Source: Candidatus Latescibacterota bacterium | Lineage (GTDB): Bacteria; Latescibacterota; UBA2968 | Direction of reading: 5' to 3' | NCBI GenBank assembly: GCA_965220765.1 | Contig: OZ244847.1 | Span: forward strand, 640,646-704,645 | DNA: 64,000 bases | In this document: positions 18,528-64,000 of the stretch, piece by piece | How the letters are laid out: each line of letters starts with the position of its first letter | Position numbering within the stretch: the first letter of the stretch is position 1 | Notes under the pieces: model-generated | Database searches by the model: none | Told to the model about the DNA's origin: nothing | Seen by the model: only the letters and a program-made list of their open reading frames with translations | Position numbers and translations under genes: made by a program

Positions 18528-18554
18528 TTAGCACTCTGTTATTTTGAGTGCTAA
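18528..18554. promoter_or_regulatory. CIRCE operator (HrcA binding site) upstream of groES-groEL
   Basis: TTAGCACTC-N9-GAGTGCTAA is a perfect match, located between the predicted promoter and the groES start. Confidence 0.85.
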
Positions 18555-18561
18555 GGCGGGA

Positions 18562-18591
18562 AAATATACAGAAGCACCAATATTTGCGCAA
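18562..18591 (-). promoter_or_regulatory. candidate sigma-70-type promoter for groESL
   Basis: Minus-strand TTGCGC-N17-TATATT lies immediately upstream of CIRCE. Confidence 0.45.
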
Positions 18592-18602
18592 GTGTAAAAG
18601 GG

Positions 18603-19073: not shown

Positions 19074-19094
19074 AGATTCATCTCCTCATTGATT

Positions 19095-45211: not shown

Positions 45212-45243
45212 CTGCCGTATAGATTGGTGTATAAAAAGACAAT

Positions 45244-45978: not shown

Positions 45979-45981
45979 TTC

Positions 45982-47250: not shown

Positions 47251-47255
47251 ACCTC

Positions 47256-49459: not shown

Positions 49460-50536
49460 CTACTGACCACTTAGCATCCTGTAGATTGATCTTAAAATTT
49501 GTTCTTCATCATCCGCAATGCGGAGAAACTGATCCTGCAAGTCGGTCAATATTTTATCATCCTTTGTCATATAAATTCTGGTGAATGACCGGGCAATGAG
49601 CATCCATTGTTTTGATATGGATTCCCACTGGTGTTCTATGCGATGAAGATCAGAGGTACAACCTTCCACTTTTAAGCCAGAACAGACAGCCATAAATTCC
49701 GATCTTTCCTGGTTCAACATAAGTGCTTCGCTACAGGCTTTTCTCGCTTGTCGCTCAAGCACATCTGGAGATTCTTGAATCCACAAAGGAAGAGCGGCTG
49801 CAAAGTTGCGAATGCCTTGCGGCCCTGCAATAACAGATAATGGCGGCAAATCTCGAGATGACTGGTTTCTTAAATATTTCCAATAGACCTTTTGAATGAG
49901 CCGCTTTAGTTTTTTTGATGAATAGAGATTGTTCTCAACTTTGTTTTTTAACAACCGAATCAGGGTTTTAGTCTCAGGGATACGACAACTCTCTGGCACA
50001 TGAAAATCATGGAATTGTTTATGGGCCAAATGGCTCCCTACAAACTCAATGGGCATCCATTGAAAAGGCCGCGCACCATTACTCACCATCAGAATAGTGT
50101 CTCGGGCATCATCAATACCACATCCAACATAAGTCGCGTGATCAGAACCATCATCGGAATAGCTGTTGCGATTTTTTGCTGCAATCCACAATAGCAATGG
50201 CCGGTTATTCTGTATTAAAATAGTGATGTGTTTGCGAAACTCTGAAGGGGTTGAGCAGATAATTGGTTCTATTCGCACATTGAAAAGCTCACGCAAATTA
50301 TGGAATACACGCCCCCGGGTATAAGCATGACGAAAGGTATTTGAGGTAGGAAAGTGCCAAAAAGACCATCCCAACTTGAGCAACTCAAAAGTTTGTAAAT
50401 TTTCAAAAAGCGGATCATGATAGGCCAAAATATTCATGACATGCCCAATGCAAAACATATACTGATTGCCAGCGGTTCCATCAGGCCCGGGGTATGGTTT
50501 TACTCTGTCTATTATACAGTTCATTTTATTATGCAA
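49460..50536 (-). CDS. hypothetical protein (possibly BtrH_N/DUF4872-like papain-fold acyltransferase)
   Basis: 358 aa. Weak resemblance only. Confidence 0.3.
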   Translation of the reverse strand: MHNKMNCIIDRVKPYPGPDGTAGNQYMFCIGHVMNILAYHDPLFENLQTFELLKLGWSFWHFPTSNTFRHAYTRGRVFHNLRELFNVRIEPIICSTPSEFRKHITILIQNNRPLLLWIAAKNRNSYSDDGSDHATYVGCGIDDARDTILMVSNGARPFQWMPIEFVGSHLAHKQFHDFHVPESCRIPETKTLIRLLKNKVENNLYSSKKLKRLIQKVYWKYLRNQSSRDLPPLSVIAGPQGIRNFAAALPLWIQESPDVLERQARKACSEALMLNQERSEFMAVCSGLKVEGCTSDLHRIEHQWESISKQWMLIARSFTRIYMTKDDKILTDLQDQFLRIADDEEQILRSIYRMLSGQ

Positions 50537-50578: not shown

Positions 50579-51238
50579 CTATTCTCTGTTTTTAGGAAAC
50601 TCAGGAGTGAAAATAAATTTCACATAAATGTAGGCAATGATTTCGCCTATAATCGACCTGAACCCTGCACTTGAATCATACCAGTAATCGGGATCGTAGT
50701 TATAGGGAGGAACAGCTATAACGCCTACTTTTGACACGCCATCAAGAGCGATTTTAAATAAAATAAACGAGCGCCGGGCATGATGACCTCTGGTAACTAT
50801 ATCAACTTTTTTTTCTTTTTGATTCGCATCGCGTAGCCAGTGACGAAGTCCTAATGCGGAATTGAAAGTACGATCTCGTTCAAACTTCCCATTCGGCATG
50901 TCGCGAACGGCCACCTTGACAAGATCAGGATCAATTTGCCATTCTGAGACAAGAACCTTCGCAGTGTTATAGGCAAAATGACCTCCCGTCACCACTATCT
51001 GAGCGTATTTGCCAGTTCTGTAAATTTGTAATGCTGATCTGAGTTCTTCGGCGTGCAACCATCCCTCTACTACCATAATGTCGCCATGTAACGGTTTGCT
51101 TATCGCAAAAAAGGGATATGCATAGATAGCAATGACTCCGCTTCCCAAAAAAATAAAAATCAAAAAAATGGTCGCTTGCTTAAATACTTTGTACAAAATC
51201 GTCCTGAAAATTCTCTTAAACTTATTATTCATAATCAT
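50579..51238 (-). CDS. DUF218 (YdcF/SanA/ElyC-like) membrane-anchored protein
   Basis: 219 aa. N-terminal transmembrane helix. VVTGGHFAYN core resembles the DUF218 VVSGG motif. Confidence 0.65.
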   Translation of the reverse strand: MIMNNKFKRIFRTILYKVFKQATIFLIFIFLGSGVIAIYAYPFFAISKPLHGDIMVVEGWLHAEELRSALQIYRTGKYAQIVVTGGHFAYNTAKVLVSEWQIDPDLVKVAVRDMPNGKFERDRTFNSALGLRHWLRDANQKEKKVDIVTRGHHARRSFILFKIALDGVSKVGVIAVPPYNYDPDYWYDSSAGFRSIIGEIIAYIYVKFIFTPEFPKNRE

Positions 51239-51310
51239 CTCATTTGGGATTTATTGACGTTGGTGAGTGGTCATACGATGTATTTCACCACGAACAGAAT
51301 TGATTAATCC

Positions 51311-51385
51311 CACATTCCCATAAACTTGAGCTTTGAACTGCTGCCTACCGCCGACACGCGACTTGCCAGGGTCTGTCAGTGGATT
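51311..51385 (+). repeat. repeat module copy 1 (5'-truncated)
   Basis: cacattccca-taaacttgagctttgaactgctg-cctaccgccgacacgcgacttgccagggtctgtcagtgg, shared with copies at 54.2, 60.0 and 63.4 kb. Confidence 0.8.
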
Positions 51386-51400
51386 TTGTCTGGGAATACT

Positions 51401-51871
51401 TTACGAAAGTCCCACACTTCTTCGAGAAGAAAAAAGAAAATGGTCGAGAGAAACAGGTGTAGATTTGAAAAAAAACAAAAAATAACAGCAGAGTAAGAAG
51501 ACCAAATCCTGGAGCAACGCGACATACAAACTGGTTTCATTGAACCCAAAACAACCACAGGCGATGTCTGCACCGCGGAGAATATTAATGCCCACTGCTG
51601 CTGCAAATATTAAAAAAAGACCAAAGCTACTGAGCACAGCACTCTTGTGCCACAAACCGAGAAATAAAAATAAACCTGTCACAAGCTCAATCCAGGGCAA
51701 GAAGATCCCCCATAGCACGACCAATCCCTCAGGGAGCAAATTGTAGGCTTTAACAATTTTAATAAATGCTTCGGGATTACGGATTTTTACAATTCCAGCC
51801 CACCCCAGAATAACTCCCAGAAATATCCTGGCCACGGTTCCTGCCCATGCTATTTTGGGAGATAGAATCAT
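51401..51871 (-). CDS. MauE/DoxX-family membrane protein
   Basis: 156 aa, 4 transmembrane helices. Conserved CGCFG pair of cysteines typical of MauE-like proteins. Overlaps the rhodanese gene by 4 bp. Confidence 0.6.
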   Translation of the reverse strand: MILSPKIAWAGTVARIFLGVILGWAGIVKIRNPEAFIKIVKAYNLLPEGLVVLWGIFLPWIELVTGLFLFLGLWHKSAVLSSFGLFLIFAAAVGINILRGADIACGCFGFNETSLYVALLQDLVFLLCCYFLFFFKSTPVSLDHFLFSSRRSVGLS

Positions 51872-52362
51872 CTGTCAAAACCAGTTTGAATCGGATTTAC
51901 TCCCTTTACCCATTCCTCCCATCCGCCTTCAAAAACTTGAACATGTATAAATCCAAATTTCCTTTTTAGAGATCTCGCCAATTCGACACTGGTATTACAA
52001 TTTATGCCAGAACAATAGACAATTATTGGGGTCTCGCGGGCGACATCAGCCAAAAGCTGCTTGGAGAAATAATCGTGCTGAATATACGGTATGTTCACTG
52101 CCCCTAAAATATGGCCTTTTTGATAGGCAGATTCAGAACGTCCATCAATGAGTAATATTTTTGATTTCGATTGAATTATATTTCGAAGCACCTCTAAAGA
52201 GAGATATGTTATATCACCTTTTTGTTGAGAGGTTTCAGCTTCACTCAACAGAAGCTGCTCGCTAAAAATGACAGTATAAATCAATCCTGCGCCTATTCCC
52301 AAAATTTGGATGACCAATGCACGCAAGAGGACTAACTTATAATTGTAGAATCCCACACTCAC
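51868..52362 (-). CDS. membrane-anchored rhodanese-domain protein
   Basis: 164 aa. N-terminal transmembrane helix. ..IIVYCSGINCNTS active-site Cys loop. Confidence 0.8.
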   Translation of the reverse strand: MSVGFYNYKLVLLRALVIQILGIGAGLIYTVIFSEQLLLSEAETSQQKGDITYLSLEVLRNIIQSKSKILLIDGRSESAYQKGHILGAVNIPYIQHDYFSKQLLADVARETPIIVYCSGINCNTSVELARSLKRKFGFIHVQVFEGGWEEWVKGVNPIQTGFDR

Positions 52363-52374
52363 CGGCTGCGTTCC

Positions 52375-54144
52375 TTATGCGATAAGTTGCTTGCGAAAAA
52401 GATGCCAATAGTGTCCTTTCCTCTTCACCAACTCGCCATGGAGTCCTTGCTCAACCACTCTGCCCCCATCCAAACAAATAACCTCATCTACCTGCTGGAT
52501 GGTGCTGAGTCTGTGGCTAATCACAATCAGGGTCTTATCTTCATATAGATCCTGTAAATTTGCTATAATTTTACCTTCGCTTTCAGAATCCAGTGCCGAT
52601 GTTGCTTCGTCAAGGATCAGAATATCCGAGTTTTTCAAAATTGCACGCGCAATCGCAATACGTTGTCTTTGACCAGCCGAAAGCGTGTTACCACGATCAC
52701 CGATAAGCGTAAGCACCCCATCTTCAGACTTCTCAATAAATCCATCCAAACCAGTTAGCCTGATCGCTTGATTGACCTCTTCGGGTGTACTTTTGGGCTT
52801 GCTGTACCGGATATTGTTCCAGATCGTATCATGAAAAACTTGATTTTCCTGGGTTACCAGACCAATATGCTCTCTCAGATCATACAGCTTGATATTGGTA
52901 ATCGGTGTGTGATCAATCGCAATCTCACCTGTATCGGATTCGTAAAAGCGACACAGCAAATTGACTAATGAACTCTTGCCACAACCGCTTGACCCCACCA
53001 GAGCATATTTTTTCCCTTTCTCAAGTCTTAAACTGAAGTCCTGCAAAACGGGTTGTCCGTTATATCCGAAATTGAGGTTGGTAAACGCAATCTCCTTTTG
53101 AAAAGAAAACGGACTGGTGGCAGACCCATCTGCTGTTTTCTGAATATCAATCTCGAGAAACTCGAATACCCGCTTCATTGAAACAGATACACGGACGAGT
53201 TCTACATAAAGCTGATTGAGATTTCTAAATGGTTCAAAAAGACGCGACAGGTACTGCAAAAAAGCAACCAATGCCCCCAGGCTCATGGCCCCCAACATGA
53301 CTTTATGGCCTCCCCATCCCAAAATGAGTGCCGGAGTCAATGACGTTAACAATCTCGAAATCGATCTCATCGCTCCAGAGTAGGTTACATTTTGCATACT
53401 GATATCCATGAGACCATTTAGCTGTGACCGCAGTCTATTATTTTCATAATTATAGGCATTATAGACTTGAATCAATTGGATAGACTCGAATCGCTCAATC
53501 AAATAGCTCATGACTTCAGAGCCTTTCTTTCGCCCGCGTTCCGTAATATCTCTTATTTTGGGCTGGAAGTAGCGAATATTGAGTGCCAGAAAGGGTATGA
53601 CAATAATAGAAACCAAAAATAGCTGCCAGTTTAACCAGCACAGAGCCACAGTAAGCCCTATGAGTGTCAGCAAGCTATGTATAAGACTCAAAGCACTTGA
53701 AGTAATAAACGACTGTATCCGATCCACTTCGTTGCTCATTCGATAGACCACATCTCCAGATTTATTGCGATCATAAAAGCTCAATGGCAACTGGATCAAG
53801 TGATCAAAAAGATGGCTTCTTATATCCAGCATAATGCGATTGTTTATATAGGCAAATAAATAGTTTGAACAAAAACTAATGATGATATTCCCTACCGTAA
53901 CACCCAATAGCAGAAGTAAAATCCATATCAATAGTTCATAGTCTTCGTTTGGAAACACGTCATCAATGATAATTTTCATGATATAAGGGAAGGCCAGCGA
54001 GCTAATAGTCCCTAAAATCATGAGCACGAAAACAACGCTTTGATGTATCCAATAAGGTTTCAGAAATTTTAAAAAATGATAAAAGACATGTCTCTGCTTA
54101 GAGAGACTGAAAATGGCGGATATGACTTGTTGTTTGTCCTTCAT
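52375..54144 (-). CDS. ABC exporter, fused permease/ATP-binding protein (ABCB-type half transporter)
   Basis: 590 aa from MKDKQQ. 6-transmembrane-helix domain, then Walker A GSSGCGKSS, signature LSAGQRQR and Walker B ILILDEATSALD. The longer ORF to 54354 reads through the repeat element and is rejected as the start. Confidence 0.9.
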   Translation of the reverse strand: MKDKQQVISAIFSLSKQRHVFYHFLKFLKPYWIHQSVVFVLMILGTISSLAFPYIMKIIIDDVFPNEDYELLIWILLLLLGVTVGNIIISFCSNYLFAYINNRIMLDIRSHLFDHLIQLPLSFYDRNKSGDVVYRMSNEVDRIQSFITSSALSLIHSLLTLIGLTVALCWLNWQLFLVSIIVIPFLALNIRYFQPKIRDITERGRKKGSEVMSYLIERFESIQLIQVYNAYNYENNRLRSQLNGLMDISMQNVTYSGAMRSISRLLTSLTPALILGWGGHKVMLGAMSLGALVAFLQYLSRLFEPFRNLNQLYVELVRVSVSMKRVFEFLEIDIQKTADGSATSPFSFQKEIAFTNLNFGYNGQPVLQDFSLRLEKGKKYALVGSSGCGKSSLVNLLCRFYESDTGEIAIDHTPITNIKLYDLREHIGLVTQENQVFHDTIWNNIRYSKPKSTPEEVNQAIRLTGLDGFIEKSEDGVLTLIGDRGNTLSAGQRQRIAIARAILKNSDILILDEATSALDSESEGKIIANLQDLYEDKTLIVISHRLSTIQQVDEVICLDGGRVVEQGLHGELVKRKGHYWHLFRKQLIA

Positions 54145-54192
54145 ATTCACCCGTGATGTAAGCAACTTAAAGTGTGCGTGTGGAATAAGACA

Positions 54193-54368
54193 CACCTTAC
54201 TCGATAAGCTCAAGTAAACTATTCTCTCAAGCTCACATTCCCAAATGCTTGAACTTTGAACTGCTGCCTGCCCGCGCCGTCGCCTGTCCGCATGCAGGTG
54301 TTCCGCACAGGCAGGCACGGCAGGCAGGTCTGCCGCCGACATTCGACTTGCCAAGGTCTGTCGGCAAC
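54193..54368 (+). repeat. repeat module copy 2 (with a roughly 60-bp GC-rich insertion)
   Basis: ccttactcgataagctcaagtaaa...ctcaagctcacattcccaaatgcttgaactttgaactgctg-[60-bp insert]-ctgccgccgacattcgacttgccaaggtctgtcggcaac. Confidence 0.8.
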
Positions 54369-54407
54369 TTCGTTATACAGAAACGCTCGAATACGACTTG
54401 ACTTTCT

Positions 54408-55514
54408 TCACTGTCCGGTAGAGGCTCCTTGGGGTTCAGTTAGACGATAGACACGAATCCTGCCATTGGTATCTTCGCCATCCTCAGGAGGCGAATACGC
54501 ATATATAGAATTCCCATGGCAAGTAAAAATATTGTACCCCAATTCATTCTTCACTTCCTGTGCATAAGGCTGCACATCCAAATCCGATAAAAGTATAAGT
54601 GCAGTACTCATTGATAAATCCTCAAAAGTGTACCTGAGCAAAATATCTCCCGAAGACAAGATATGCATGCCGTACAACCTGCTGAACCTATGTTGGGATA
54701 ATTGTCTTATATCTTTGCTATCATCTACTTCATCTAACTTGAGACTGACAAATTTGGGATGATTTGTGACTATGGGTGTAAGAAACTCCTGTGCTGTCAA
54801 ATCAATTCGCATAACTTTATCTTCCCAAGGCAGCGCAAAGTATATGATTTTTCGCACTTCGTCATAAGCAAGCCCTTGGTAACGCTGCAAACCAAAAAAT
54901 AGTTTTCCGTATTGTGTATCGCAGACCTTGAACTTTGCGAGGTCGTCACCAGTGTCAAGGGAAGTGACGCAAAGCATACCGTTTTTGTTTTTATCTACAT
55001 AAGTATGAATGAGATTATGACCATCGGAAACCGCCAAGCGATTAATAAAGCGTCTCTCAGATAGCTCTACTTTCCCTACAAATTCACCTTTGAGTGAAAA
55101 TCGAAGCGTCTGTCCGGTTCCTCCATCGTAGATTAGTATTTGGTCGGTATTGGGGATAGTCGTTGGGTGAGTCGGTATCTTGTACTGGCCTTCTCCTTCC
55201 CCCCGACTGCCAATAGACCGCTTATAGCTTCCCTCTCTGCCAAAAACTTCGACACTTTTTCTCATAGTATCTAAAATAATGATGTAGTCCTCCACAACCA
55301 CAATAGATCCGACACGCCCGAGAAACGGTCCCGCCTCTGGGTGTTCGAGGGTAATAACATCAATCAATGCGATCTGGGGGGGGGGGCCTTGTGTTTGCAC
55401 CTTAGGGACGACCCTATCGAGCTGGTTTTCAACAGTACTTTTTTCGCAACTTCCAAAAATAAGAAAGAGGAGTGTCAGCCACCTCGCGGAAACCAATAAC
55501 TTTTTTTTATTCAT
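54408..55514 (-). CDS. beta-propeller lipoprotein (6-bladed-propeller-like) carrying a 12-nt homopolymeric tract
   Basis: 368 aa. Lipobox LIFGSC. Repeated blade-like segments. A G12 run on the plus strand at 55376-55387 encodes the PPP of ..QGPPPQIA... Confidence 0.5.
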   Translation of the reverse strand: MNKKKLLVSARWLTLLFLIFGSCEKSTVENQLDRVVPKVQTQGPPPQIALIDVITLEHPEAGPFLGRVGSIVVVEDYIIILDTMRKSVEVFGREGSYKRSIGSRGEGEGQYKIPTHPTTIPNTDQILIYDGGTGQTLRFSLKGEFVGKVELSERRFINRLAVSDGHNLIHTYVDKNKNGMLCVTSLDTGDDLAKFKVCDTQYGKLFFGLQRYQGLAYDEVRKIIYFALPWEDKVMRIDLTAQEFLTPIVTNHPKFVSLKLDEVDDSKDIRQLSQHRFSRLYGMHILSSGDILLRYTFEDLSMSTALILLSDLDVQPYAQEVKNELGYNIFTCHGNSIYAYSPPEDGEDTNGRIRVYRLTEPQGASTGQ

Positions 55515-55540
55515 CGGTTTTAATCCTTTTCTATTTGGGC

Positions 55541-56498
55541 TCGATATTCCTGAGAAGTTGTTTTAAAAATGGATCGTTTAATCGAGTCTGTTGAGTAAGA
55601 GGTAAATCATAACAATGTGAATAAAGGCTTCACTATTGTCAGTCAAGTCTTCATAATCCTTTGACAGACGGCGAAAATTTAATAACCAAGCAAAGGTGCG
55701 CTCAACGACCCAACGGCGCTTGGCGACCTGGAAGCCCTCACCTTTAGGCTTAACAACCTCAAGATCAATTTTATACGTGCGCTTCCTATCAGCGACCCAT
55801 TCCTTGAGGTCATCGCCGCGATAGCCGCCATCAACCCACAGCTTGCGTAAGCGTGTTGTTCCTTGCTCAAAATACTGATTCAGCAGATGCTTGAGGCCGT
55901 CACGATCTTGGAGATTGGCAGGCGAGACAAAGGCGTTGATCACCAGGCCGAGGGTATCGACAAACAGGTGGCGTTTGCGTCCATTGACCTTTTTGCCAGC
56001 ATCGTAACCTTTTGAGTCTTTTTGTGTTGCACTCTTGACACTTTGACTGTCAATGCAGCCTGCTGATGCGGTAGCTTTGCGTCCTTGTCGTTTTCTCTCT
56101 TTTCGTGTGAGTGCTTGTTGCATACGCTCAAAGACACTTTGCTCGCGCCACTTATTGAAATAGCCATACACGGTTTGCCAGCAGCCAAAGGTATGAGGCA
56201 ACATGCGCCATTGGCAGCCCGTCTTCGTCAGATACAGGATGCCATCAAACACGTTCCGCAAATTGACAGGGGGACGTCCACGGCTACCTTTTCGCCATTT
56301 GCGCTTGGGCAGGAGTGGGATGAGCAGTTGCCATTGCGCTTCGGTTACATTTGTCGGATATTGCCGGTGCGTATTCATCGCAGGTCCTTTCGTTTCAGGG
56401 TGATATGCACTACCTGAATTTGGACAGATGAATACGCTTTTTCAACGCTTTTTTTCTTCTTTCATAATTTTAAAACAGCTTCTGAGGATTTACCGAGA
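55541..56498. mobile_element. IS5-family insertion sequence (about 0.96 kb) with about 25-30-bp imperfect terminal inverted repeats
   Basis: Left end tcgatattcctgagaagttgttttaaaaatgg. Right end reverse-complement tcggtaaatcctcagaagctgttttaaaattatg. Single transposase ORF inside. Confidence 0.75.
55578..56378 (-). CDS. IS5-family DDE transposase
   Basis: 266 aa. DDE_Tnp_1-like motifs CIDSQSV (D), FVDTLGL (D), VVERTFAWL (E). N-terminal helix-turn-helix. Confidence 0.85.
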   Translation of the reverse strand: MNTHRQYPTNVTEAQWQLLIPLLPKRKWRKGSRGRPPVNLRNVFDGILYLTKTGCQWRMLPHTFGCWQTVYGYFNKWREQSVFERMQQALTRKERKRQGRKATASAGCIDSQSVKSATQKDSKGYDAGKKVNGRKRHLFVDTLGLVINAFVSPANLQDRDGLKHLLNQYFEQGTTRLRKLWVDGGYRGDDLKEWVADRKRTYKIDLEVVKPKGEGFQVAKRRWVVERTFAWLLNFRRLSKDYEDLTDNSEAFIHIVMIYLLLNRLD

Positions 56499-56574
56499 AT
56501 ACCGAGCTAAACTGGAGTACATCAAGTGCGATAGCACATTTTTTACAACTCCTTGCACTTAAGTTGAGTTTACA

Positions 56575-59052
56575 TCAGTCCTCTTGAAGGGCATCTATTG
56601 GACTTTCAGAGGCGACCTTGAACGCATGTATGAAGCCACCTATCAGCGGAAGAAGAATGCCTAAGAAGATTGCTACCAAAATCGTGCCAACACCAAATTG
56701 AAAGCGGTAGGCAAATATTGAGAGCCATTCATCCATAAAGAAATAGGAGAGCGGAAGCATGATGATGGCGGCGATAAATCCAGGTACTGCGTAGTTCAGC
56801 ACAATCCCACTGGCTATTTTGGAGGGCACAGCCCCCATGACCCTTCGGATGACGATTTCCTTTCTTCTGCGTGCCACGGCGAGGGAGATCATGCCCAGGG
56901 CACCCATTGACGCGATCAGGACAGCACACAAAGTCGCGCCAGAGACGATCTTGCTCCAACTGATTTCTCGGGCATAAAAGTGTCGCCTGTCATCTTCTAC
57001 AAAGGAAAATGTCAGGTGATGCTCCGTTTTGAGGTCTTGCCATAGTTCCTTGAGAAACGCACTAAATGCTTTGGCATTGCCATCTTGAAGCCGAATCAAT
57101 ATTTCACGGTCTTGTCGCTTGGTTGTTGCACCATCTGGGACAATCGTGATGATAGTCGGTGGGACCTTGTGGTGTGAACTTTGGAAGCGAAAATCCTTGA
57201 CTATACCTACAATACGGCCACTGACATCGCGACCAAACACGGGTCTTCTGAACTTTGTATCCGCCTGCGTGATCACCTGTCCAAGAGGCTGTGGTGATGT
57301 CAGGTGTTTTTGCAAGGCTTCATTCACGATTACATCGCCCGGGATAGGATTTGGATGTAAGGCTCTTCCTTGTAAGAGTTGCAACCCGACGGTCTTCAGA
57401 AAAGGGCCATCTACCTGATAATAGTTTACATTATCAATGAGTTTGTTACCGCTGTCTTTGATTAGAGTTGAGTTTGACGAATTTAGAGACAGATTCGTCC
57501 GAACAGAGGATGTCACGAGAGGAGACGCTGATAAAGACGCTTGCAGACGATCAATCTCATTTTCTGTCAACCCACTGGTATTGAGTCTGACCAGGTTCGC
57601 GGGTTCAAACCCTGGATCTGCTGTGATGACGAAAAAGGTCTGTTCAAAGATAATGATCGTGCAAAATACAAACACCAATGTCACACCCGACTGTACAGCC
57701 ATCAGTACCTTCAAAAAAGGACCAGACCTGACGGCCTTTGAGGTTTTGCTCAAAACGCTGATGGCAGACACAGACGACATAAATGTCGCCGGGTAAATGG
57801 CTGTGACCAGACCTATTAGACAGGCAAGTGATAGGAAAATGATCGCGGTCTGAATAGGATCTACCGAAGACATAAAAGGGATCCGCAAAATGCCTTCAAT
57901 AGGACTTGAGGCCAACTCTGCGACTGCCAGACTTATGATGCAGGCCAAAATGCTGTATCCAAAGCATTCGGCCAATAGCTGGTATCTGAGTTGCCGTCGG
58001 TTCGCGCCAAAGATTTGCCTGATGCCCAATTCTTTTGTACGCGAGTTGAACCGCGCTACATAAAGAAGCACGTAATTCAAACACGCGATAAACAGAACCA
58101 ATATACTGATACCGGCGAGAATATATCCATATAAGGGATTTGTTTTGCGAAACATACCATCAACAAATAGACCGATATAATGGTGCAGGTCTGTGAGGGA
58201 TTGCAATTTGGCCTGAAAGGTCTCTAAGTCCCATATTGAGTTGATAGAGGACTGCTTCTGCATGAACGTAGTGAGCTTTCTGTCCATTTCTTCCACATTT
58301 GATCTGTCTGCCAAACGGATGTAATGTGTGGATTCAAAGCCCCAGTCCCATTGTCCTTCTTCATTATCGAGAAAGGTCGTGGACATACTCAAGGGCAAAA
58401 GAATCTCGAAATATAAGCTCGAATTACGTGGAGGAGCCACGATGCCCCCGATTTCAACAGGGGCTACTACGGGTTTTATATCTCTCAAAAATCTGCGAGA
58501 AGCAACTCGCATCCATAACACTTTGCCTATCAAGTTGTCAATATCGTTGGTAAGCGTCTGAGCAAATCTACGTGTGATCACGACTTGCCCAGGGCGAGAG
58601 AAGAATGTACCGCGAATAAGGGGGAAGGAAAACATCTCTTCAAAACTTCTATCGACGAACAAGACATGTTGGATAGGTCGCAAAAACTCTTTGTGAGTAC
58701 CTACCTGGCAGGTCGCTGTCCCAATGACACTCTTTACACGGGTTGTATGCTCAATCTCAGGAAATTCAGCAGCCACCATGGAGGATAGTGCAACAGGAAA
58801 ACTGGCGGTCTCTGTCCATGTGCCCGCCAACGGTGTCCCTCTTATTGTTTTTTCATACTTGACCTTTCCGACAACGCAGTATATGCGATGATGGTCTTTG
58901 TGGAATCTATCAAAGCTCCAATCGTACAGGAAGTAAAGCACGCAGAGATAGCAGCAGGCAATTCCTATCCCCAAACCCAGCAGATTAATGGCTGCATACG
59001 TTTTATACTTGAGGATATTGCGAAACCATGTTCGGAAGTAATTGGCAATCAT
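56575..59052 (-). CDS. FtsX-domain ABC-transporter permease (MacB-like, two FtsX repeats)
   Basis: 825 aa. An N-terminal transmembrane helix, a large periplasmic domain and 3 transmembrane helices, repeated twice. No adjacent cognate ATPase gene. Confidence 0.8.
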   Translation of the reverse strand: MIANYFRTWFRNILKYKTYAAINLLGLGIGIACCYLCVLYFLYDWSFDRFHKDHHRIYCVVGKVKYEKTIRGTPLAGTWTETASFPVALSSMVAAEFPEIEHTTRVKSVIGTATCQVGTHKEFLRPIQHVLFVDRSFEEMFSFPLIRGTFFSRPGQVVITRRFAQTLTNDIDNLIGKVLWMRVASRRFLRDIKPVVAPVEIGGIVAPPRNSSLYFEILLPLSMSTTFLDNEEGQWDWGFESTHYIRLADRSNVEEMDRKLTTFMQKQSSINSIWDLETFQAKLQSLTDLHHYIGLFVDGMFRKTNPLYGYILAGISILVLFIACLNYVLLYVARFNSRTKELGIRQIFGANRRQLRYQLLAECFGYSILACIISLAVAELASSPIEGILRIPFMSSVDPIQTAIIFLSLACLIGLVTAIYPATFMSSVSAISVLSKTSKAVRSGPFLKVLMAVQSGVTLVFVFCTIIIFEQTFFVITADPGFEPANLVRLNTSGLTENEIDRLQASLSASPLVTSSVRTNLSLNSSNSTLIKDSGNKLIDNVNYYQVDGPFLKTVGLQLLQGRALHPNPIPGDVIVNEALQKHLTSPQPLGQVITQADTKFRRPVFGRDVSGRIVGIVKDFRFQSSHHKVPPTIITIVPDGATTKRQDREILIRLQDGNAKAFSAFLKELWQDLKTEHHLTFSFVEDDRRHFYAREISWSKIVSGATLCAVLIASMGALGMISLAVARRRKEIVIRRVMGAVPSKIASGIVLNYAVPGFIAAIIMLPLSYFFMDEWLSIFAYRFQFGVGTILVAIFLGILLPLIGGFIHAFKVASESPIDALQED

Positions 59053-59666
59053 CGGTCATCCATATTTTGTTAATAGCGGTGTGGATAAAAAACCGTGCCA
59101 TAGTCGGTAACCTTCGCTACTCAAATAATCACACATTTTCCCTGTCTTGGATGTTATGAGGAAGAGTGTTGAAGTTTTTGACAGCGTAAAATCAGTGTTA
59201 TCGGTAAATAGGCCGATAACACGAGGTTGTGCCTATATTAGTTGAAATAGTAGAGGTCCCAATGTAAATTGGATACAGCAGTTTCAACCGTGAAAACGCT
59301 ATATCCTCAACCAAAGGGGCCCGTAATCTGCCTGTGCGTTGCACGCAGACAGGTGAATAAAATATCGCACAAGCCCCCAAAGTCAAATCCACAAAGACGA
59401 TGCAACGCCACAAACACCCCCTGAAGAAGAACTGGACACACTGAATACACGCATCGCGCCAAGCCTTGATCCCAATAGGATTAGATGCCGTGGCAGAAGA
59501 ATTACAGCAGGAAGTGACCCGCTTAGCCGGGGACAGATATGGACTTGACCCGATAACACCGAACTAAATTTGAGCCTACCAAGAGGGTTGCACACTTTGC
59601 TTTTTTAAAGGGGCATATAGAAATGCTCTATTTTAATGAACTATCTCAAGTGAGACAATCATTGTA

Positions 59667-59900
59667 TCAGCATGGTCCCCAAGTTTTTCTCGTACTATAT
59701 GCCTCCTCTGATCTACATTCGTAATAAGGAAAATACTCCCGGCACTCATAGTAAGTGGTTATGGTCACACACCTAACCGGATCTCCAACAGTCTCTCTTA
59801 TACGACCCGTCTCAATCCAGATACCCCAGTCGTGCCACTCATATCCATAAATACGTGGAGAAGACAGCGGAGACTTCTCAGGCTTGGTCAAGATCTTCAT
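59667..59900 (-). CDS. small Cys/aromatic-rich peptide (candidate precursor peptide)
   Basis: 77 aa. Strong RBS AAAGGAAAGGAGGTG 7 nt before the ATG. Four Cys. Internal YYEC..YYEC repeat. Repeat module copy 3 lies immediately upstream. Confidence 0.45.
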   Translation of the reverse strand: MKILTKPEKSPLSSPRIYGYEWHDWGIWIETGRIRETVGDPVRCVTITTYYECREYFPYYECRSEEAYSTRKTWGPC

Positions 59901-59946
59901 AATATCACCTCCTTTCCTTTTGGGTCAAGTAAAAGTGTGCTTGCCC

Positions 59947-60085
59947 TTACTTGATAGGCTCAAGTTCAAGTAAAACCATTCTCTCCCGCTCACATTTTCC
60001 AAATGTTTGAGCTTTGAACTGCTGTGGTAACCCGCCCTTGGGAGCTACCGCCGACACTTGACTTGCCATGGTATGTCGGCGGCTA
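59947..60085 (+). repeat. repeat module copy 3
   Basis: cttacttgataggctcaagttcaagtaaaaccattctctcccgctcacattttccaaatgtttgagctttgaactgctg-tggtaacccgcccttgggagcta-ccgccgacacttgacttgccatggtatgtcggcgg. Confidence 0.8.
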
Positions 60086-60128
60086 TTATATCAACACTTT
60101 TGCCATGGCTACATCTTGTTCATAAATA

Positions 60129-60851
60129 TCAATAAACAAATGTAGATAAAGGATCTATCTCAAATTTCTTGGCAATAATTCGAGAATAGGGCACCCCTTT
60201 AAGATGACCGTTTAGAAGTGGTTTTTGTAAACGCAAATGTTTTTGAATCACACCAAAAAAGAGGACTGTGTTTTGAGGGCGGTCTTTTGAAGGCAAATGA
60301 CAATGCGTTATGATATTCTTTTCATTGACAACAAAGACCGCTGGCGTGCGATGGGTGAGTACTTTATTCTGGAATAGCATGTTCTCAGTATCCGAAAGCA
60401 ACTCGTAATGCAGATTAAAACTTCTTTTGTATCTTTTCAACACGCCCGCAGGAGCATTGGCAAACGCATAAATTGGAAAGCGTTTTTCGGGGTCCTGGCT
60501 CTGGTACACATGCTCCAGTAACTTTATCTGGGTGATTAGACAGGGCTGACAGTCTTGAGGCTTGAAGACGAGAACCAATCCTTTTCCTGTTTTAGAAAAA
60601 TCCGTTGAAATCCAATCGCCATTTATATTCTTCAATTTCAACTTCGGAAATTCTTGCCCTTGATAATTGGAGGCATAAGTAGAAGTGTTTATATGCTCCT
60701 TGTAATCAGCATTCTCTATTCGGAGACCTCTGATTTCTTCCCAACGACGAGCGTTCGTATTTCTCAACTTCCATACCCCAAATAACGCAACAAAAAGAAA
60801 AACAGATAGCAGGATATTTAAAATCAGCGATATTTTGCGAATTTCTTGCAT
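60129..60851 (-). CDS. membrane-anchored TlpA/ResA-like thiol-disulfide oxidoreductase (thioredoxin fold, CxxC)
   Basis: 240 aa. N-terminal transmembrane helix. VLVFKPQDCQPCLITQ active-site CQPC. Confidence 0.7.
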   Translation of the reverse strand: MQEIRKISLILNILLSVFLFVALFGVWKLRNTNARRWEEIRGLRIENADYKEHINTSTYASNYQGQEFPKLKLKNINGDWISTDFSKTGKGLVLVFKPQDCQPCLITQIKLLEHVYQSQDPEKRFPIYAFANAPAGVLKRYKRSFNLHYELLSDTENMLFQNKVLTHRTPAVFVVNEKNIITHCHLPSKDRPQNTVLFFGVIQKHLRLQKPLLNGHLKGVPYSRIIAKKFEIDPLSTFVY

Positions 60852-60882
60852 TTACTTTCTCCGCATCGTTAAGGTATTGATC

Positions 60883-62799
60883 TCAAAAAAAATCAACAAC
60901 AACATCGGCCATCTTTTTTTGTCCTTCTACGCTGATTATCTCAGTGGCTGGAAGGCCCTGCGTTGATTCTATGCGCGATGTGATTTGGCAAATTTCCGCT
61001 TTAGAGAGCGGCTGGTTGACGACTGTATTAACCGTGTCATTAACAATTTTTTTCTTATCACTAAAAACGAGCAGAATAACTTTTCCTTTTCCCAGGCCCT
61101 CTAACACGCGGATATTTTCCTGTATAAATTCAGGCTCGTCGATAGAATTAACGAGCAGGATATAGGCATCGGGAACGGTTCCAAAGAGCAAGATCAATGA
61201 GGGCAACGTATAACTCTGAGATTTTTCGTAAAAGCTATGAGGTATGATACCGGACTGACCACCAACAATGATGATATCCGGGTCTGAGTGTTCAATGCCG
61301 ACCATAGCGGAATTTAGAAGTGGAATGTGTAAATCTATGGGAATTTGGATGCTCTGATGCCCGTCATATCCATTTGGAAATGTAAAATCGAAATCAAATA
61401 ATGCAGATTGGTGTTCTGTACCCAATTGACCCACTTTATAGCCAATTTTCTGTAATTGTTTTCTCAGTGCCAATTGTGCAGTGAACTTGCCTTGTTGCGG
61501 TCCTGTCCCAAACACGCCCACGACAGGTTTCTGGCTTCTGTTTCTCCAATCATAAGTTTTGGTCAAAGCCTCATAAGTTGCAAAATCAATGGTCGGTGCT
61601 GCACAATGTAGATATTTTTCTTCAAATGCTTTACTTATGCTTTCGTATTGCTTATTTGCAATGGGGCTCAGACTGTAAACATTCTTGTTATGCTTCAATG
61701 CCAGTTTTAGAGATTCTTGTAACACATCGCGTTTCTTAATCCGGCTAATTTCATCCAAATAGCCCAAAACGAGCGTATCGCCGTATTGCAGACAGTCTTC
61801 CAAATTTTGTTGTATGATGAGATCAGATTCGACCCCACCAATAACCTCCCCACAATCTTTGCCTATGGTTCTTTTTCCAACAACGTCAACTACCCTTGCA
61901 ATTCTAAACGGCAATAACTCCTGAAACCGCACCAGCCCATGCATTTCTTTGTTATAGGGGAAAATCACAGCCTTTTCTATCCAGTCTGGCGTATTATTTG
62001 CCTTATTTAGGTCTCGGATAGAAACGTCTGAGCGAGACCTGGGCATTTCGCTCATTGCATAAGCACTGCTATCTACCAACTCGGGACATTGACTTAAGGA
62101 GTGCATCTGCAAAATTTCTGTCAGATCGTTGAAAGTTATGCCATCATATTTCTCTATGATCAGAGCAATCAAGCCAGAAACATGCGGAGCCGCAAAACTC
62201 GATCCGCCCATAAATATCTGTTTGCCTACCAGCCAATCGAGGCGTTGACGATCACCTCGTGCGACAAACTGTATTTTTTCGTGCGGGTCAAAAAAGTAAT
62301 CAAATTTTCCACTCACTTTTCCTCCTGCTACGCCAAAAACATTGGGAAAAGACGCGGGAATACTCGGTTGTCCATCATTTGATGTCGCCGCAACAATGAA
62401 CGTCTGGTGTTTGTGTGCAAAATCACAGGCCTCCTTCAAAATATCGATATTCCTCTCATCCAGAGTGCCTAAACTCAAATTGATAATGTGACAGTGATGT
62501 TCAACACACCAGTAAATCGCCTTGCACAAAATGTCCATTGTCGCTATCAGCTCTGATTCAAAAATTTTGACAGGCAAAAATTCTACATTGGGAGCCTTAG
62601 AGTGGATGACGCCAATACATGCTGTACCGTGGCCTATCATATCCTTGTAATTTGAATCCTGACCGCCATTGCAGAAACTGGTACCATTCAACACATGTAC
62701 ATCTTTGTGGCCGACGTTAAAACCGCTATCAATGACGCCGATCCGAGTCCCAGTACCTGTCAGCCCTGAAAAAAAATGCGCCATCAAAAAACCTTTCAA
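60883..62799 (-). CDS. intracellular S8 subtilisin-like serine peptidase fused to a roughly 400-aa C-terminal domain (possible CoA-binding/Rossmann-like region)
   Basis: 638 aa. Catalytic triad contexts GVIDSGF (D), HGTACIG (H), GGSSFAAPHVSG (S). No signal peptide. C-terminal half contains VVGVFGTGPQQGKFTAQLAL, which is SucD/CoA-binding-like. Confidence 0.8.
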   Translation of the reverse strand: MKGFLMAHFFSGLTGTGTRIGVIDSGFNVGHKDVHVLNGTSFCNGGQDSNYKDMIGHGTACIGVIHSKAPNVEFLPVKIFESELIATMDILCKAIYWCVEHHCHIINLSLGTLDERNIDILKEACDFAHKHQTFIVAATSNDGQPSIPASFPNVFGVAGGKVSGKFDYFFDPHEKIQFVARGDRQRLDWLVGKQIFMGGSSFAAPHVSGLIALIIEKYDGITFNDLTEILQMHSLSQCPELVDSSAYAMSEMPRSRSDVSIRDLNKANNTPDWIEKAVIFPYNKEMHGLVRFQELLPFRIARVVDVVGKRTIGKDCGEVIGGVESDLIIQQNLEDCLQYGDTLVLGYLDEISRIKKRDVLQESLKLALKHNKNVYSLSPIANKQYESISKAFEEKYLHCAAPTIDFATYEALTKTYDWRNRSQKPVVGVFGTGPQQGKFTAQLALRKQLQKIGYKVGQLGTEHQSALFDFDFTFPNGYDGHQSIQIPIDLHIPLLNSAMVGIEHSDPDIIIVGGQSGIIPHSFYEKSQSYTLPSLILLFGTVPDAYILLVNSIDEPEFIQENIRVLEGLGKGKVILLVFSDKKKIVNDTVNTVVNQPLSKAEICQITSRIESTQGLPATEIISVEGQKKMADVVVDFF

Positions 62800-62917
62800 T
62801 ACGCGATGTGTGACTTTAAAATCGCCACAGAATCATGCCGACAAACAGATATAAGAAAGTCAAAACTACTGGATTACTGGCATTGTGCCTTCGCGGCTAA
62901 CATCCTGCCGCAATGAC

Positions 62918-62937
62918 GGGCGAGGCATGCCTCGCCC
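62918..62937. other. perfect GC-rich palindrome downstream of the ACP-like gene
   Basis: gggcgagg-catg-cctcgccc. No adjacent U-tract on the minus strand. Confidence 0.4.
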
Positions 62938-62980
62938 CTACAATGGATAACTGACCACTGATTGCTTGTTTTTTTCACCA

Positions 62981-63280
62981 TTATTCTAAAGTCACACCTG
63001 ACGTCTTTCGATATGTTTCAGTGGTTAATTTCCCATATATATACTGCGCTACCGAACGTGTCGAAGTGAGCATGTCTTCTGTGAGTTCTTCGTCCTCTAC
63101 GACCACGTCAAATGTATCCTCTAAGCCTGTCACCAGGGCCAGGGTGGAAATAGAATCGAGTATAGAATTCAAAGGAAGATTACCCCAATCTACATCATCG
63201 GATGGGACTTCACGGTCTAATGCTCTCAGGACCAGACCTTGAATCTGATTCTCAATCTCAGCTATTGTATTTTCTGTCAT
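62981..63280 (-). CDS. acyl-carrier-protein-like small acidic protein
   Basis: 99 aa, acidic. LPLNSILDSISTLALVTGLE resembles the phosphopantetheine-attachment helix II (DSL..EL) of carrier proteins. Confidence 0.4.
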   Translation of the reverse strand: MTENTIAEIENQIQGLVLRALDREVPSDDVDWGNLPLNSILDSISTLALVTGLEDTFDVVVEDEELTEDMLTSTRSVAQYIYGKLTTETYRKTSGVTLE

Positions 63281-63334
63281 AAAATTTTATATCCGGTTAC
63301 ACGATAGTTGACATCCTATCCCTCAAAAGGTATC

Positions 63335-63426
63335 TTACCATCAAGCTCACATTCCCAAATGCTTGAGCTTTGAACTGCTGTCTGCCGCCGACACTCGACT
63401 TGCCAGGGTCTGTCGGCGGCTTTTTT
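63335..63426 (+). repeat. repeat module copy 4 (most compact; second hairpin followed by T6)
   Basis: cttaccatcaagctcacattcccaaatgcttgagctttgaactgctg-tctgccgccgacactcgacttgccagggtctgtcggcggc-tttttt. Confidence 0.8.
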
Positions 63427-63450
63427 GTGATGTATGTAATATAATTGCCC

Positions 63451-63990
63451 TTATAGTTTCAAGCCCGAAAGTTTGTCCTGACCTGCAAAATTTGTCCCAG
63501 ATTCTACTTTTTTGCGATATGTGGTCGGACTAACGCCATGCTTCTCTTTGAAAAACTTGCTAAAAGTCGATAAAGATGCAAATCCACACAGGTAAGCAAT
63601 TTCTGAAAGGGTATATGATGTGTTCTTCAACGCTTCCTCAGCCTTTGTTAGACGTACATTCCGAAGGCACATCCTGAACGGCATTCCCAGGTGCTTCTTA
63701 AACAATTTATATCCATAGCTTTCCGAGAACCTGAAATGACGTATGACATCTTTAAATTTCAGCTTTGGATTGCTGTAATTCGCCTCCAAAAATGATTCCA
63801 ACCAGATCTTCCACATATCTTGTGGAGGCATATATTTTTTGATCTTCGCCAAAAACACATCTCTCTTGATGGGTTTATCAAATACACTGACAGCACCGGC
63901 CTTGATCAGTTGCTCGCCCAATTCTGCGGATTGCAAATCTGTCATGACCAGCATAGCGGTCTGTATTTTCTCCGCCTTCACACGCTTCAA
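63451..63990 (-). CDS. AraC-family transcriptional regulator, probably with N-terminal receiver domain (5' end outside the window)
   Basis: C-terminal AraC helix-turn-helix (..SEIAYLCGFASLSTFSKFFKEKHGVSPTTYRK). Preceding ..IKAGAVSVFDKPIKRDVFLAKI resembles the end of a REC domain. The ORF runs to the window edge. Confidence 0.8.
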   Translation of the reverse strand: MKRVKAEKIQTAMLVMTDLQSAELGEQLIKAGAVSVFDKPIKRDVFLAKIKKYMPPQDMWKIWLESFLEANYSNPKLKFKDVIRHFRFSESYGYKLFKKHLGMPFRMCLRNVRLTKAEEALKNTSYTLSEIAYLCGFASLSTFSKFFKEKHGVSPTTYRKKVESGTNFAGQDKLSGLKL

Positions 63991-64000
63991 TAGGGTTATT

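Follow-up and report, generated by a model that had tools for sequence, protein, structure and literature searches.

A candidate leader-peptide-guided maturation and export locus with a subtilase–DUF1611 fusion in Candidatus Latescibacterota

Gene content and organization of the locus

The last part of a 64,000-nucleotide stretch of contig OZ244847.1 (assembly GCA_965220765.1, Candidatus Latescibacterota; the window hereafter) holds a run of co-directional genes that a previous sequence-only reading had taken for a peptide maturation, redox and export locus. From position 50579 to the end of the window, all substantial open reading frames (ORFs) are carried by the minus strand. In the order of transcription, they encode an AraC-type response regulator, an acyl carrier protein (ACP)-like protein, a fusion of an S8 subtilase with a DUF1611 domain, a TlpA-like thioredoxin-fold protein, a 77-aa candidate precursor peptide, a permease, a propeller lipoprotein, an ABCB-type exporter, a rhodanese-domain protein, a MauE/DoxX protein and a DUF218 protein. 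All the genes named in the sequence-only reading are present on the minus strand within 50579–64000, and their domain assignments hold in Pfam and NCBIfam profile matches judged against curated cut-offs. Missing from it were an IS5-family insertion, a BtrH-like gene and a block of glycosyltransferase genes. The low G+C content that it described was recovered (0.41–0.47 in the locus against 0.49–0.58 across the first 43 kb), but the low-GC block does not start at position 51239: its onset lies at about 43.3 kb, some 8 kb earlier.

The window ends inside the regulator gene (63451–64000, minus strand), 0.55 kb upstream of the ACP operon, so that the N-terminus of the protein runs off the sequence. 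The AraC half of the REC-AraC architecture proposed for this protein is strongly matched (HTH_18, 4.9e-22; HTH_AraC, 7.4e-14), whereas the receiver match is weak (Response_reg, 0.0069), only the C-terminal half of that domain being visible. Relatives of the regulator, with 82–100% identity, are encoded in the related loci L003, L004 and L039 (L numbers designate the loci retrieved in the genome scan described below).

A subtilase–DUF1611 fusion and its carrier protein

The signature enzyme of the locus is a 633-aa protein (60883–62784, minus strand) assigned by Pfam and NCBIfam profiles. Its S8 domain starts at residue 9, with neither a signal peptide nor a propeptide, and aligns to mature subtilisin BPN' (3e-39). 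It belongs to Peptidase S8 (PF00082; 84.8 bits against a cut-off of 21.8) and has an Asp-His-Ser triad, D19/H52/S196, which is invariant in 49 sequences. The best curated match of this domain is QhpE (NF049966), which aligned over the whole 219-position model (139.6 bits, E 8.9e-41) and missed the cut-off of 165. QhpE removes the 28-residue leader of QhpC in the cytoplasm before ABC export by QhpF (PMC7876137).

The sequence-only reading had pointed to this signal-peptide-less subtilase with an extra domain beside an ACP, and the extra domain can now be placed. The C-terminal 370 residues match TIGR04066, 'peptide maturation system protein', over residues 275–550 (124.2 bits against a cut-off of 200, E 5.9e-36), again below the cut-off. 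They also score above the gathering cut-off of DUF1611 (PF07755) and share its fold, which is that of 2G0T, 2OBN and DgcN. AlphaFold models were confident, with a predicted local distance difference test score (pLDDT) of 89.3 for the full-length protein and of 91.5 for the domain, the latter with a predicted template-modelling score of 0.90. A GTxxQQGKFT motif is invariant in the DUF1611 domain, which is of the DgcN-like, P-loop kind. In a sequence search of the PDB, the C-terminal domain retrieved 2G0T alone (7e-4), and DgcN was reached through a fold search. DgcN (PDB 7XRJ), with 19% identity, is the only characterised structural relative of the fused domain. It is a D-glutamate N-acetyltransferase, which acts on a free amino acid with acetyl-CoA.

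The adjoining ACP-like gene (62981–63280, minus strand) encodes a small protein with the motif LDSIS, which contains the putative phosphopantetheine-site serine. Profile matches are weak: Pfam PP-binding scored 18.9 against a cut-off of 20.8, and generic ACP models matched, all below cut-off. Nevertheless, the serine of the [D/N]-S motif is invariant in 53 out of 53 aligned homologues adjoining S8–DUF1611 genes, and by this conserved attachment site the protein qualifies as an acyl carrier protein. The fused DUF1611 domain probably carries out a pantetheine-dependent acyl transfer, in which it might either load the carrier from acyl-CoA or transfer the group from the carrier to a peptide. [quoted passage not shown]

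Conserved leaders and hypervariable cores in the precursor family

The 77-aa ORF (59667–59900, minus strand), which had been proposed as the substrate of the locus, is preceded by a strong Shine-Dalgarno sequence, GGAGGTGA, six bases before its ATG. It consists of a 21-aa leader, MKILTKPEKSPLSSPRIYGYE, and a 56-aa core with four cysteines, nine Asp/Glu and 11 aromatic residues. A homologue search with the ORF retrieved only itself, and seven precursors, including this one, had no NCBIfam match at E ≤ 1. However, a hidden Markov model (HMM) of the leader retrieved one or two small ORFs at the equivalent place in each of L001–L005, L007 and L009 (E 1e-12 to 1e-15), where the S8 fusion is 89–91% identical to that of the window. 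No leader-HMM match was obtained in L006, a 4.5-kb contig encoding an 87%-identical fusion. The orthologous leaders read MK[TIA]L[TS]KP-x8-SxRIYGYE. Over the orthologous loci, the leader is 66% and the core only 20% identical, against 85–91% for the flanking enzymes, and the cores retain two to five cysteines and an excess of Asp/Glu and aromatic residues. A conserved leader followed by a hypervariable core is the usual signature of the precursor of a ribosomal natural product or bacteriocin. With such a leader and core, and with processing genes adjoining it, the 77-aa ORF is, by this pattern of conservation, a genuine precursor peptide.

A more general profile, made from leaders of different clades and reading M-x-x-L-x-K-P-x-[RK]-x(3-8)-Φ-x-[AG]-Y-x-x-[DE], found precursors in 27 loci belonging to several paralogous clades, all of them on the strand of the protease gene; the window ORF matched it at 6.8e-08. 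The corresponding regular expression gave 50 matches, against 14 on a reversed-sequence control. The cores behind this leader are of several kinds. Some are acidic and rich in Cys, others short with a CC terminus, and others again hydrophobic, rich in Gly and Ala and present as three to four tandem copies; a fourth group is long (100–120 aa) and Cys-poor. Many precursors of the same leader superfamily are free of cysteine.

Considering the precursor family together with the adjoining enzymes, we think it likely that the locus is a leader-peptide-guided, RiPP-like maturation and export cluster, whose signature is the cytoplasmic subtilase–DUF1611 fusion and a dedicated carrier protein.

Distribution and neighbourhood of the fusion

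The S8–DUF1611 fusion has more than 1,300 relatives in a 90%-clustered collection. Searched against 1.84 billion representative proteins, its C-terminal domain retrieved at least 431 clusters (50% identity) at E ≤ 1e-30, and 132 of the best 150 relatives are fused proteins of about 585–730 aa. A scan of one genome per species showed 219 encoded relatives, from which 77 loci were kept. Most of these are found in Candidatus Latescibacterota, and the remaining hosts belong to Gemmatimonadota, KSB1, Melioribacteraceae/Rosettibacter, Marinilabiliaceae and Cytophagia, together with one Bacillota metagenome-assembled genome. There are often two or three loci per genome.

Neighbour frequencies were taken from the 48 loci with full 10-kb flanks (complete loci hereafter). 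An ABCB exporter and an ACP are each encoded in 81% of them, and an exporter of any kind in 90%. These are followed by a BtrH-like protein or unk346, a family described below (60%), an HlyD-type adaptor (58%), TlpA, MauE or rhodanese (44%), a DUF5128 propeller (35%), an AraC regulator and a CPBP protease (27% each), glycosyltransferases (19%) and radical SAM/SPASM proteins (10%). The sequence-only reading had named gene-neighbourhood conservation as a check on itself, and the fusion does recur with ACP, ABCB, TlpA, rhodanese, MauE and propeller genes in loci whose fusions are only 35–50% identical to that of the window. At such a distance, the association is not due to the recent common descent of one island. 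This makes it hardly credible that unrelated housekeeping genes have come to lie side by side by chance, with the small ORF arising by chance as well. It is true that the ABC, FtsX, thioredoxin-fold and rhodanese matches are generic and that the DUF218 match is marginal, but the same gene families recur in at least six phyla, the leader of the small ORF is conserved in the orthologous loci, and the leader matches far exceed those on the reversed control.

Several loci show a modular expansion of the system. In L007, two consecutive precursor-propeller-permease cassettes occupy positions 12854–21304; L027 carries two S8–DUF1611 genes 3.5 kb apart (4549–11899); and in L049, L055 and L072 there are three to four tandem hydrophobic precursors.

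In the window, a BtrH-like/DUF4872 gene (49460–50536, minus strand) lies downstream of the genes that the sequence-only reading had covered. Its product is weakly matched in Pfam (DUF4872, 3.6e-4; BtrH_N, 0.01), better by a profile of the BtrH-like neighbours of S8–DUF1611 genes (4.6e-10) and strongly by a profile of its L004/L005 orthologues (3.4e-45). This candidate carrier-dependent acyltransferase would be a second transferase acting with the carrier. Two further protein families that recur at such loci match nothing in Pfam or NCBIfam. One, unk346 (346 aa), may be related to BtrH and was found in 20 of the 77 loci (for instance, L032 3669–4709), and the other, unk214 (214 aa), in 12 loci (for instance, L042 12177–12821), where its gene always precedes the BtrH-like gene. 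Profile comparisons of DUF218 with unk214 and of unk214 with BtrH found no relation.

A four-copy repeat ahead of the transcription units

The sequence-only reading had noticed four copies of one regulatory-looking repeat. All lie on the minus strand and are 77–96% identical: copy 4 (63338–63428, about 60 nt upstream of the ACP start), copy 3 (59981–60091, upstream of the precursor gene), copy 2 (54224–54376, upstream of the ABCB gene, with a 60-nt insert between its two modules) and copy 1 (51302–51391, downstream of the MauE gene and upstream of the DUF218 gene). A 22-nt core pattern has four matches in the 64 kb, none of them outside the locus, where 0.02 are expected, and the repeat is therefore real. 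On the gene strand, it consists of an A-rich run, hairpin A (GCCGCCGACA-(17 nt)-TGTCGGCGGC), an insert of 0–80 nt and box B (CAGCAGTTCAAAGCTCAAGCATTTGGGAATGTGAGC). Box B can fold into a second hairpin, and the whole 160-nt region has a z-score of −2.9. The copies stop 60–100 nt before the start codons of the ACP, precursor, ABCB and DUF218 genes. Profile searches detected both modules in other genomes as well, where in the orthologous loci they invariably follow the gene strand and occupy matching intergenic sites, those before each precursor gene included.

Taken over 27 copies, 93.7% of the cells in hairpin A pair, and three pairs have changes on both sides. Many of the departures are G-U pairs; read on the opposite strand, these would turn into A-C mismatches. 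As the G-U pairs fit the sense RNA alone, the pattern points to a structure in the sense RNA, although covariation is modest. As a cis element, the repeat is specific to the locus, where it marks four transcription units. It could combine a terminator or processing hairpin with an operator or promoter box, or it could be a 5' leader RNA. No Rfam family reached its gathering score in the window, and none matched at E ≤ 1 over 59880–60140, which contains one repeat copy. Sigma-70 promoter-like sites numbered 33, against 27.2 ± 5.8 in shuffled sequences, and no promoter was assigned. A sigma-54 reading of the conserved TGGCAAGTC-N3-TGTC in the hairpin loop was rejected on inspection, the −12 GC being missing at the required spacing. 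Two weak fifth copies (43645–43690, 61%; 63747–63776, 67%) were not recovered by the profile search and were treated as chance matches.

Just upstream of the ACP gene, at 63281–63330 on the gene strand, lies ATGTCA-N17-TATAAA, and the ATG follows the second hexamer by only about 7 nt. All orthologous loci conserve this stretch, which the consensus scan did not flag. It might be the promoter of an ACP transcript with no leader or a very short one. Hairpin-A-like elements without box B were also seen beside AraC-type genes in paralogous loci of the same or related genomes (L018 1504–1545, L028 1183–1230, L051 2900–2946, L076 14298–14340 and L009 8292–8339), a hint at a link of hairpin A with the regulator family instead of with one particular locus.

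Export and redox genes

The ABCB-type half-transporter (52375–54144, minus strand) contains both ABC_membrane (2.3e-53) and ABC_tran (1.2e-31) domains. The mechanically predicted ORF starts at 54354 and reads through repeat copy 2, so that its first 70 codons (MASRMSAADLPAV…, 54145–54354) are a translation of the repeat. The true start is most likely M71 at 54144, judging by the length of the resulting protein (589 aa, compared with 591–612 aa in the orthologues). Spurious repeat-derived peptides were seen in L007 and L009 as well, and gene callers may annotate them as N-terminal extensions or small proteins. The transporter has no C39 peptidase domain, and matches to bacteriocin ABC models begin after the peptidase region. 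Neither this protein nor the leader, which ends in IYGYE and not in GG, has the features of double-glycine bacteriocin or lanthipeptide export. The lack of a C39 domain fits the removal of the leader by a separate protease.

What the transporter carries bears on a second explanation of the gene cluster. Two systems might lie side by side, one a peptide locus running from the regulator to the permease and the other a glycan or lipid export locus comprising the ABCB protein as flippase, DUF218, glycosyltransferases, Bac_transf and a methyltransferase, in which case the exporter would not serve the peptide. The best curated match of the transporter is MsbA (467.6 bits), and PglK matches too, but all its curated matches, among them HepA, fall below cut-off, and those to HlyB and to the bacteriocin and NHLP ABC models are comparable. 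Downstream of the BtrH-like gene and co-directional with it, a low-GC block (43481–49456, minus strand) encodes GT4, DUF4915, GT4, Bac_transf, DUF354 and methyltransferase proteins, of which one is TIGR03032-like (DUF4915/TIGR03032-like). Bac_transf, two GT4 proteins and DUF354 make up a typical set for the assembly of lipid-linked glycans, and the block could be for either peptide tailoring or a separate surface-glycan locus. The DUF218 membrane protein (50579–51238, minus strand) scored a marginal 29.6 bits against a cut-off of 27.6, and an orthologue was matched in one related locus only, L004. The gene is thus present, as the sequence-only reading had it, but its membership of the system is uncertain, and by this distribution it falls outside the conserved gene set. 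Against a division into two systems, ABCB accompanies S8–DUF1611 in most complete loci, usually without any glycosyltransferase; through the repeat, the units of ABCB and DUF218 are tied to those of the precursor and the ACP; and the glycosyl genes stay near the orthologous loci. Orthologues of the second GT4 protein (GT4b), Bac_transf and DUF354 flank L002, L004, L005 and L007 at varying positions, with the glycosyl genes on the upstream side in L002 and L007, on the downstream side in L005 and in the window, and on both sides in L004. We consider two separate systems improbable.

Between the precursor and ABCB genes lie a duplicated, ADOP-like FtsX/MacB permease (56575–59052, minus strand) and a six-bladed beta-propeller lipoprotein (54408–55514, minus strand), the latter with a lipobox-like FGSC in its translation. 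The permease matched FtsX (6.4e-23), MacB_PCD (1.4e-20), DarB (2.6e-22) and, below cut-off, ADOP (1.1e-59), and the propeller matched DUF5128 (1.6e-12). For the permease, the exporter and the propeller alike, Pfam bears out the identification made from sequence alone. Within the orthologous loci, conservation is lowest for propeller and permease (63–76% and 69–80% identity, respectively), the propeller being the most divergent of all, and in L007 the pair is repeated after each of two precursors. We infer that this pair is peptide-specific, with a role in immunity or in extrusion through the outer membrane.

The redox set put forward in the sequence-only reading was recovered in full. Besides the DUF218 protein, it comprises a TlpA/ResA-like thioredoxin-fold protein (60129–60851, minus strand; AhpC-TSA 3.7e-09, Redoxin 3.1e-08), whose translation shows an N-terminal membrane anchor and a CQPC motif and whose orthologues are 85–90% identical; a membrane-anchored rhodanese-domain protein (51868–52362, minus strand; Rhodanese 1.8e-18), present in 18 related loci; and the integral membrane protein MauE/DoxX (51401–51871, minus strand; MauE 1.8e-25), a member of the MauE family (PF07291) at 90.2 bits against a cut-off of 27. 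The TlpA-like protein did not match MauD (TIGR02661), and its sole curated match was ResA (6.6e-4). The redox genes accompany Cys-rich cores: most loci with such cores have TlpA, MauE or rhodanese genes, which are absent from all eight loci with long Cys-poor cores. It is suggestive that the redox genes track the cysteine content of the core. What defines the system, in this pattern, is its leader together with the protease fusion; the redox genes would be a module recruited for Cys-rich cargo.

The radical-SAM question and relation to known systems

The main rival to the RiPP-like reading given above is an ordinary radical S-adenosylmethionine (radical-SAM) thioether cluster of the ranthipeptide, sactipeptide or CcpM type, with its maturase beyond the window or elsewhere and with the S8–DUF1611 protein and the ACP as accessories, as in TIGR04065–TIGR04068. 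Both halves of the fusion have their nearest curated relatives, QhpE and TIGR04066, in radical-SAM thioether families, and the cores are rich in Cys and Asp/Glu, the partners in Qhp-type thioethers. Besides, the window stops inside the regulator gene and leaves the upstream side out of view, and in L002 and L007 a radical-SAM/SPASM gene is found about 4–5 kb upstream of the ACP gene (best models SCIFF, QhpD and PapB, all below cut-offs). Nevertheless, such a gene occurs within 10 kb in only eight out of 77 loci, or five out of the 48 complete ones, and there is no radical-SAM similarity anywhere in the 64-kb window. L001, L003 and L009, which share the AraC gene of the window directly upstream of the ACP gene, have no radical-SAM gene in the 8.5–9.5 kb upstream, and the many Cys-free precursors with the same leader also argue against thioether chemistry. 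We therefore regard a thioether cluster as unlikely.

The closest described assemblage is the TIGR04065–TIGR04068 'Cys-rich peptide' system of Clostridia and Paenibacillus, to which the window system is related without being a member. It comprises a CLI_3235-type precursor, the TIGR04066 protein, an ACP-related protein and the CcpM maturase. The SacP23 cluster of Paenibacillus polymyxa is an example, which joins CcpM, TIGR04066, an ACP-related protein, an S8 protease and an ABC transporter, all encoded by separate genes (PMC10731318), and which also speaks for the thioether explanation. Common to both systems are a DUF1611-type protein, a small ACP-related protein, a subtilisin-like protease, an ABC exporter and a Cys-rich ribosomal precursor, and in the TIGR04066/CcpM system, too, the pair of DUF1611 and ACP has no established function. 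In the window system, however, protease and DUF1611 form one polypeptide, and the ACP and precursor match no curated model of the described system. The window and about 90% of related loci lack CcpM (TIGR04068), against whose cut-off of 500 the radical-SAM proteins of the other loci score at most 176.5 bits. The hosts belong to Gram-negative-type phyla, and their loci add periplasmic redox genes and export genes of the RND/MacB type.

With the Qhp system (QhpC, QhpD, QhpE, QhpF and QhpR), the locus shares a compact, propeptide-less cytoplasmic subtilisin, a peptide rich in Cys, Asp and Glu, ABC efflux and an AraC-type regulator (PMC7876137). With MauD/MauE, which form the disulfides of the small subunit in methylamine dehydrogenase biogenesis (PMC7876137), it shares a MauE protein and a membrane-anchored CxxC thioredoxin-fold protein near a small, Cys-rich, periplasmic substrate. 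The co-occurrence of a QhpE-like protease, an ABC exporter, an AraC regulator, MauE and a MauD-like thioredoxin-fold protein would be in keeping with a peptide that serves a periplasmic enzyme, either as its small cross-linked subunit or as the precursor of its cofactor, on the pattern of Qhp or methylamine dehydrogenase (Mau). We judge this highly improbable. There are no dehydrogenase subunit genes in the locus: none of QhpA, QhpB, QhpC, QhpD and QhpG appears among its domain assignments, nor do mau structural genes, and apart from Pfam MauE, the Qhp and Mau curated models scored below cut-off, MauD giving no match. Related loci usually lack a QhpD-like radical-SAM enzyme, and a rhodanese partner, foreign to MauD/MauE, is present. 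The Qhp substrate is one conserved enzyme subunit, whereas here the cores diverge to 20% identity between near-identical loci, which is incompatible with a conserved subunit, and the substrates are multi-copy: a genome has two or three paralogous loci, and one locus can hold up to four precursors in tandem.

The carrier-dependent part of the locus recalls BtrI/BtrH of butirosin and the GCN5-related N-acetyltransferase (GNAT) of goadvionin in having a free-standing carrier with a phosphopantetheine serine, a BtrH-family protein and a peptide substrate. In contrast to those systems, it lacks polyketide and fatty-acid synthases, and nothing of the ATP-grasp or adenylating kind is present to load the carrier. 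For the candidate transferase, the fold is DUF1611/DgcN-like and not that of a GNAT. DgcN, in turn, is a free-standing enzyme of amino-acid catabolism, whereas the domain in the window is fused to a protease and encoded beside carrier protein and precursor genes.

No description of the S8–DUF1611 fusion, the leader motif or the Latescibacterota loci was found in the literature, and among publications on DUF1611 with peptides, TIGR04066, BtrH with RiPPs and Latescibacteria with RiPPs, only the SacP23 cluster table was relevant. The 'undescribed type' of the sequence-only reading has to be qualified, for the combination of TIGR04066, ACP, S8 and ABC proteins had already been noted in silico in Firmicutes, together with a radical-SAM enzyme.

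Proposed maturation pathway

The processing, thiol chemistry and export of a small Cys-rich peptide, as the sequence-only reading had suggested, are supported by the comparative evidence, and for the RiPP-like cluster that we favour, the following order of events can be proposed. The strong ribosome-binding site would drive translation of the 77-aa precursor, whose LxKP…IYGYE leader would be recognised and cut off in the cytoplasm by the S8 domain, much as QhpE acts on QhpC; we ascribe leader removal to this domain because of its homology, its intact triad and the absence of a signal peptide and propeptide. The DUF1611 domain, the holo-carrier and the BtrH-like protein could then act together in shifting an acyl or aminoacyl group onto or off the phosphopantetheine arm and attaching it to the peptide, where the amine freed by leader removal is the most economical target. 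This carrier-dependent modification is the weakest step in the chain. The C39-less ABCB half-transporter would export the peptide to the periplasm in the manner of QhpF, where the CQPC protein, MauE and the membrane rhodanese may oxidise or isomerise the core cysteines in a way comparable with MauD/MauE. The propeller lipoprotein and the MacB-type permease, co-diversifying with the core, might provide self-protection or outer-membrane extrusion. The REC-AraC regulator and the hairpin A/box B element ahead of the four transcription units would coordinate expression.

This reading builds on the gene content, the repeat, the precursor family, the co-occurrence of the genes and the fold, which are observed; cleavage, acyl transfer, the export route, disulfide formation, immunity and co-regulation are deduced from them, and it counts against the reading that everything beyond gene content and conservation is deduction of this kind. 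Several particular points also weigh against it. DgcN, the only characterised DUF1611 enzyme, uses a free amino acid and is just 19% identical to the fused domain. The locus has no obvious carrier-loading enzyme and no phosphopantetheinyl transferase, and its MacB-type permease has no ATPase partner there. The top match of the ABCB protein is the lipid flippase MsbA, and with a glycan block adjoining, export of a glycolipid in place of the peptide is conceivable for this copy. Pfam matches to the BtrH-like protein of the window are weak, and unk346 is linked to BtrH with an hhalign probability of only 61%, which is suggestive. The association between cysteine content and redox genes has a Fisher p of about 0.05, uncorrected for phylogeny. 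Finally, the IS5 element inside the cluster may disturb its expression.

A more far-reaching version of the RiPP-like reading is that the locus represents a new, radical-SAM-independent RiPP class, defined by the LxKP…[A/G]Y leader and by a single 'cleave-and-cap' enzyme, with or without a BtrH-like partner. The subtilase domain would remove the leader, and the DgcN-like domain would transfer a group from the carrier protein to the peptide. To our knowledge, neither this chemistry nor this enzyme fold has a counterpart in RiPP biosynthesis. We advance this idea tentatively and lean towards doubting it; the class, if real, would be widespread among uncultured Latescibacterota and Gemmatimonadota and present there in multiple copies.

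The system is a widespread, uncharacterised variety of RiPP-like maturation and export cluster. The analysis would name and delimit a large peptide natural-product system that we found neither described nor curated, in phyla known almost only from metagenomes (Latescibacterota, Gemmatimonadota, KSB1 and relatives of Ignavibacteriota). It offers a first testable role for the pair of DUF1611 and ACP, which has stood unexplained in the TIGR04066 system for more than 10 years. The leader motif and the fusion protein are usable handles for genome mining, and since most of the loci lack radical-SAM, lanthipeptide and YcaO enzymes, detection rules built on those would presumably find nothing. The hypervariable cores and the co-diversifying propeller and permease suggest an arms race, either in antagonism or in interaction with a host.

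Insertion sequence, intergenic features and block boundary

The IS5-family insertion sequence (55548–56488, minus strand; transposase 55578–56378) lies between the permease and propeller genes and is an intruder, not a part of the system. Its transposase scored 252 bits against a cut-off of 110 with transpos_IS5_3, its terminal inverted repeats are 21 nt long and 90% complementary, and the element is absent from the orthologous loci. It may be polar on the genes downstream.

The 614-nt stretch between the precursor and permease genes (59053–59666) contains no convincing gene. A terminator-like hairpin with a 10-bp stem and a T-rich tail lies there downstream of the precursor gene (59195–59222, minus strand), identified by pattern match only. 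The same stretch carries, at about 59144–59182, an inverted relic of the propeller gene spanning 12–33 aa, which is arm 2 of the inverted-repeat pair I1; the other arm (55237–55274) is inside the propeller gene itself. The relic suggests a past rearrangement of the propeller and permease order, which varies among the orthologous loci.

Just outside the low-GC block, genes for a 525-aa AAA/STAND-like ATPase (41622–43199) and an MnhE antiporter subunit (40614–41090) were found. Between 43.2 and 43.5 kb, the G+C content steps from about 0.53 to 0.41, which likely marks the edge of an accessory block.

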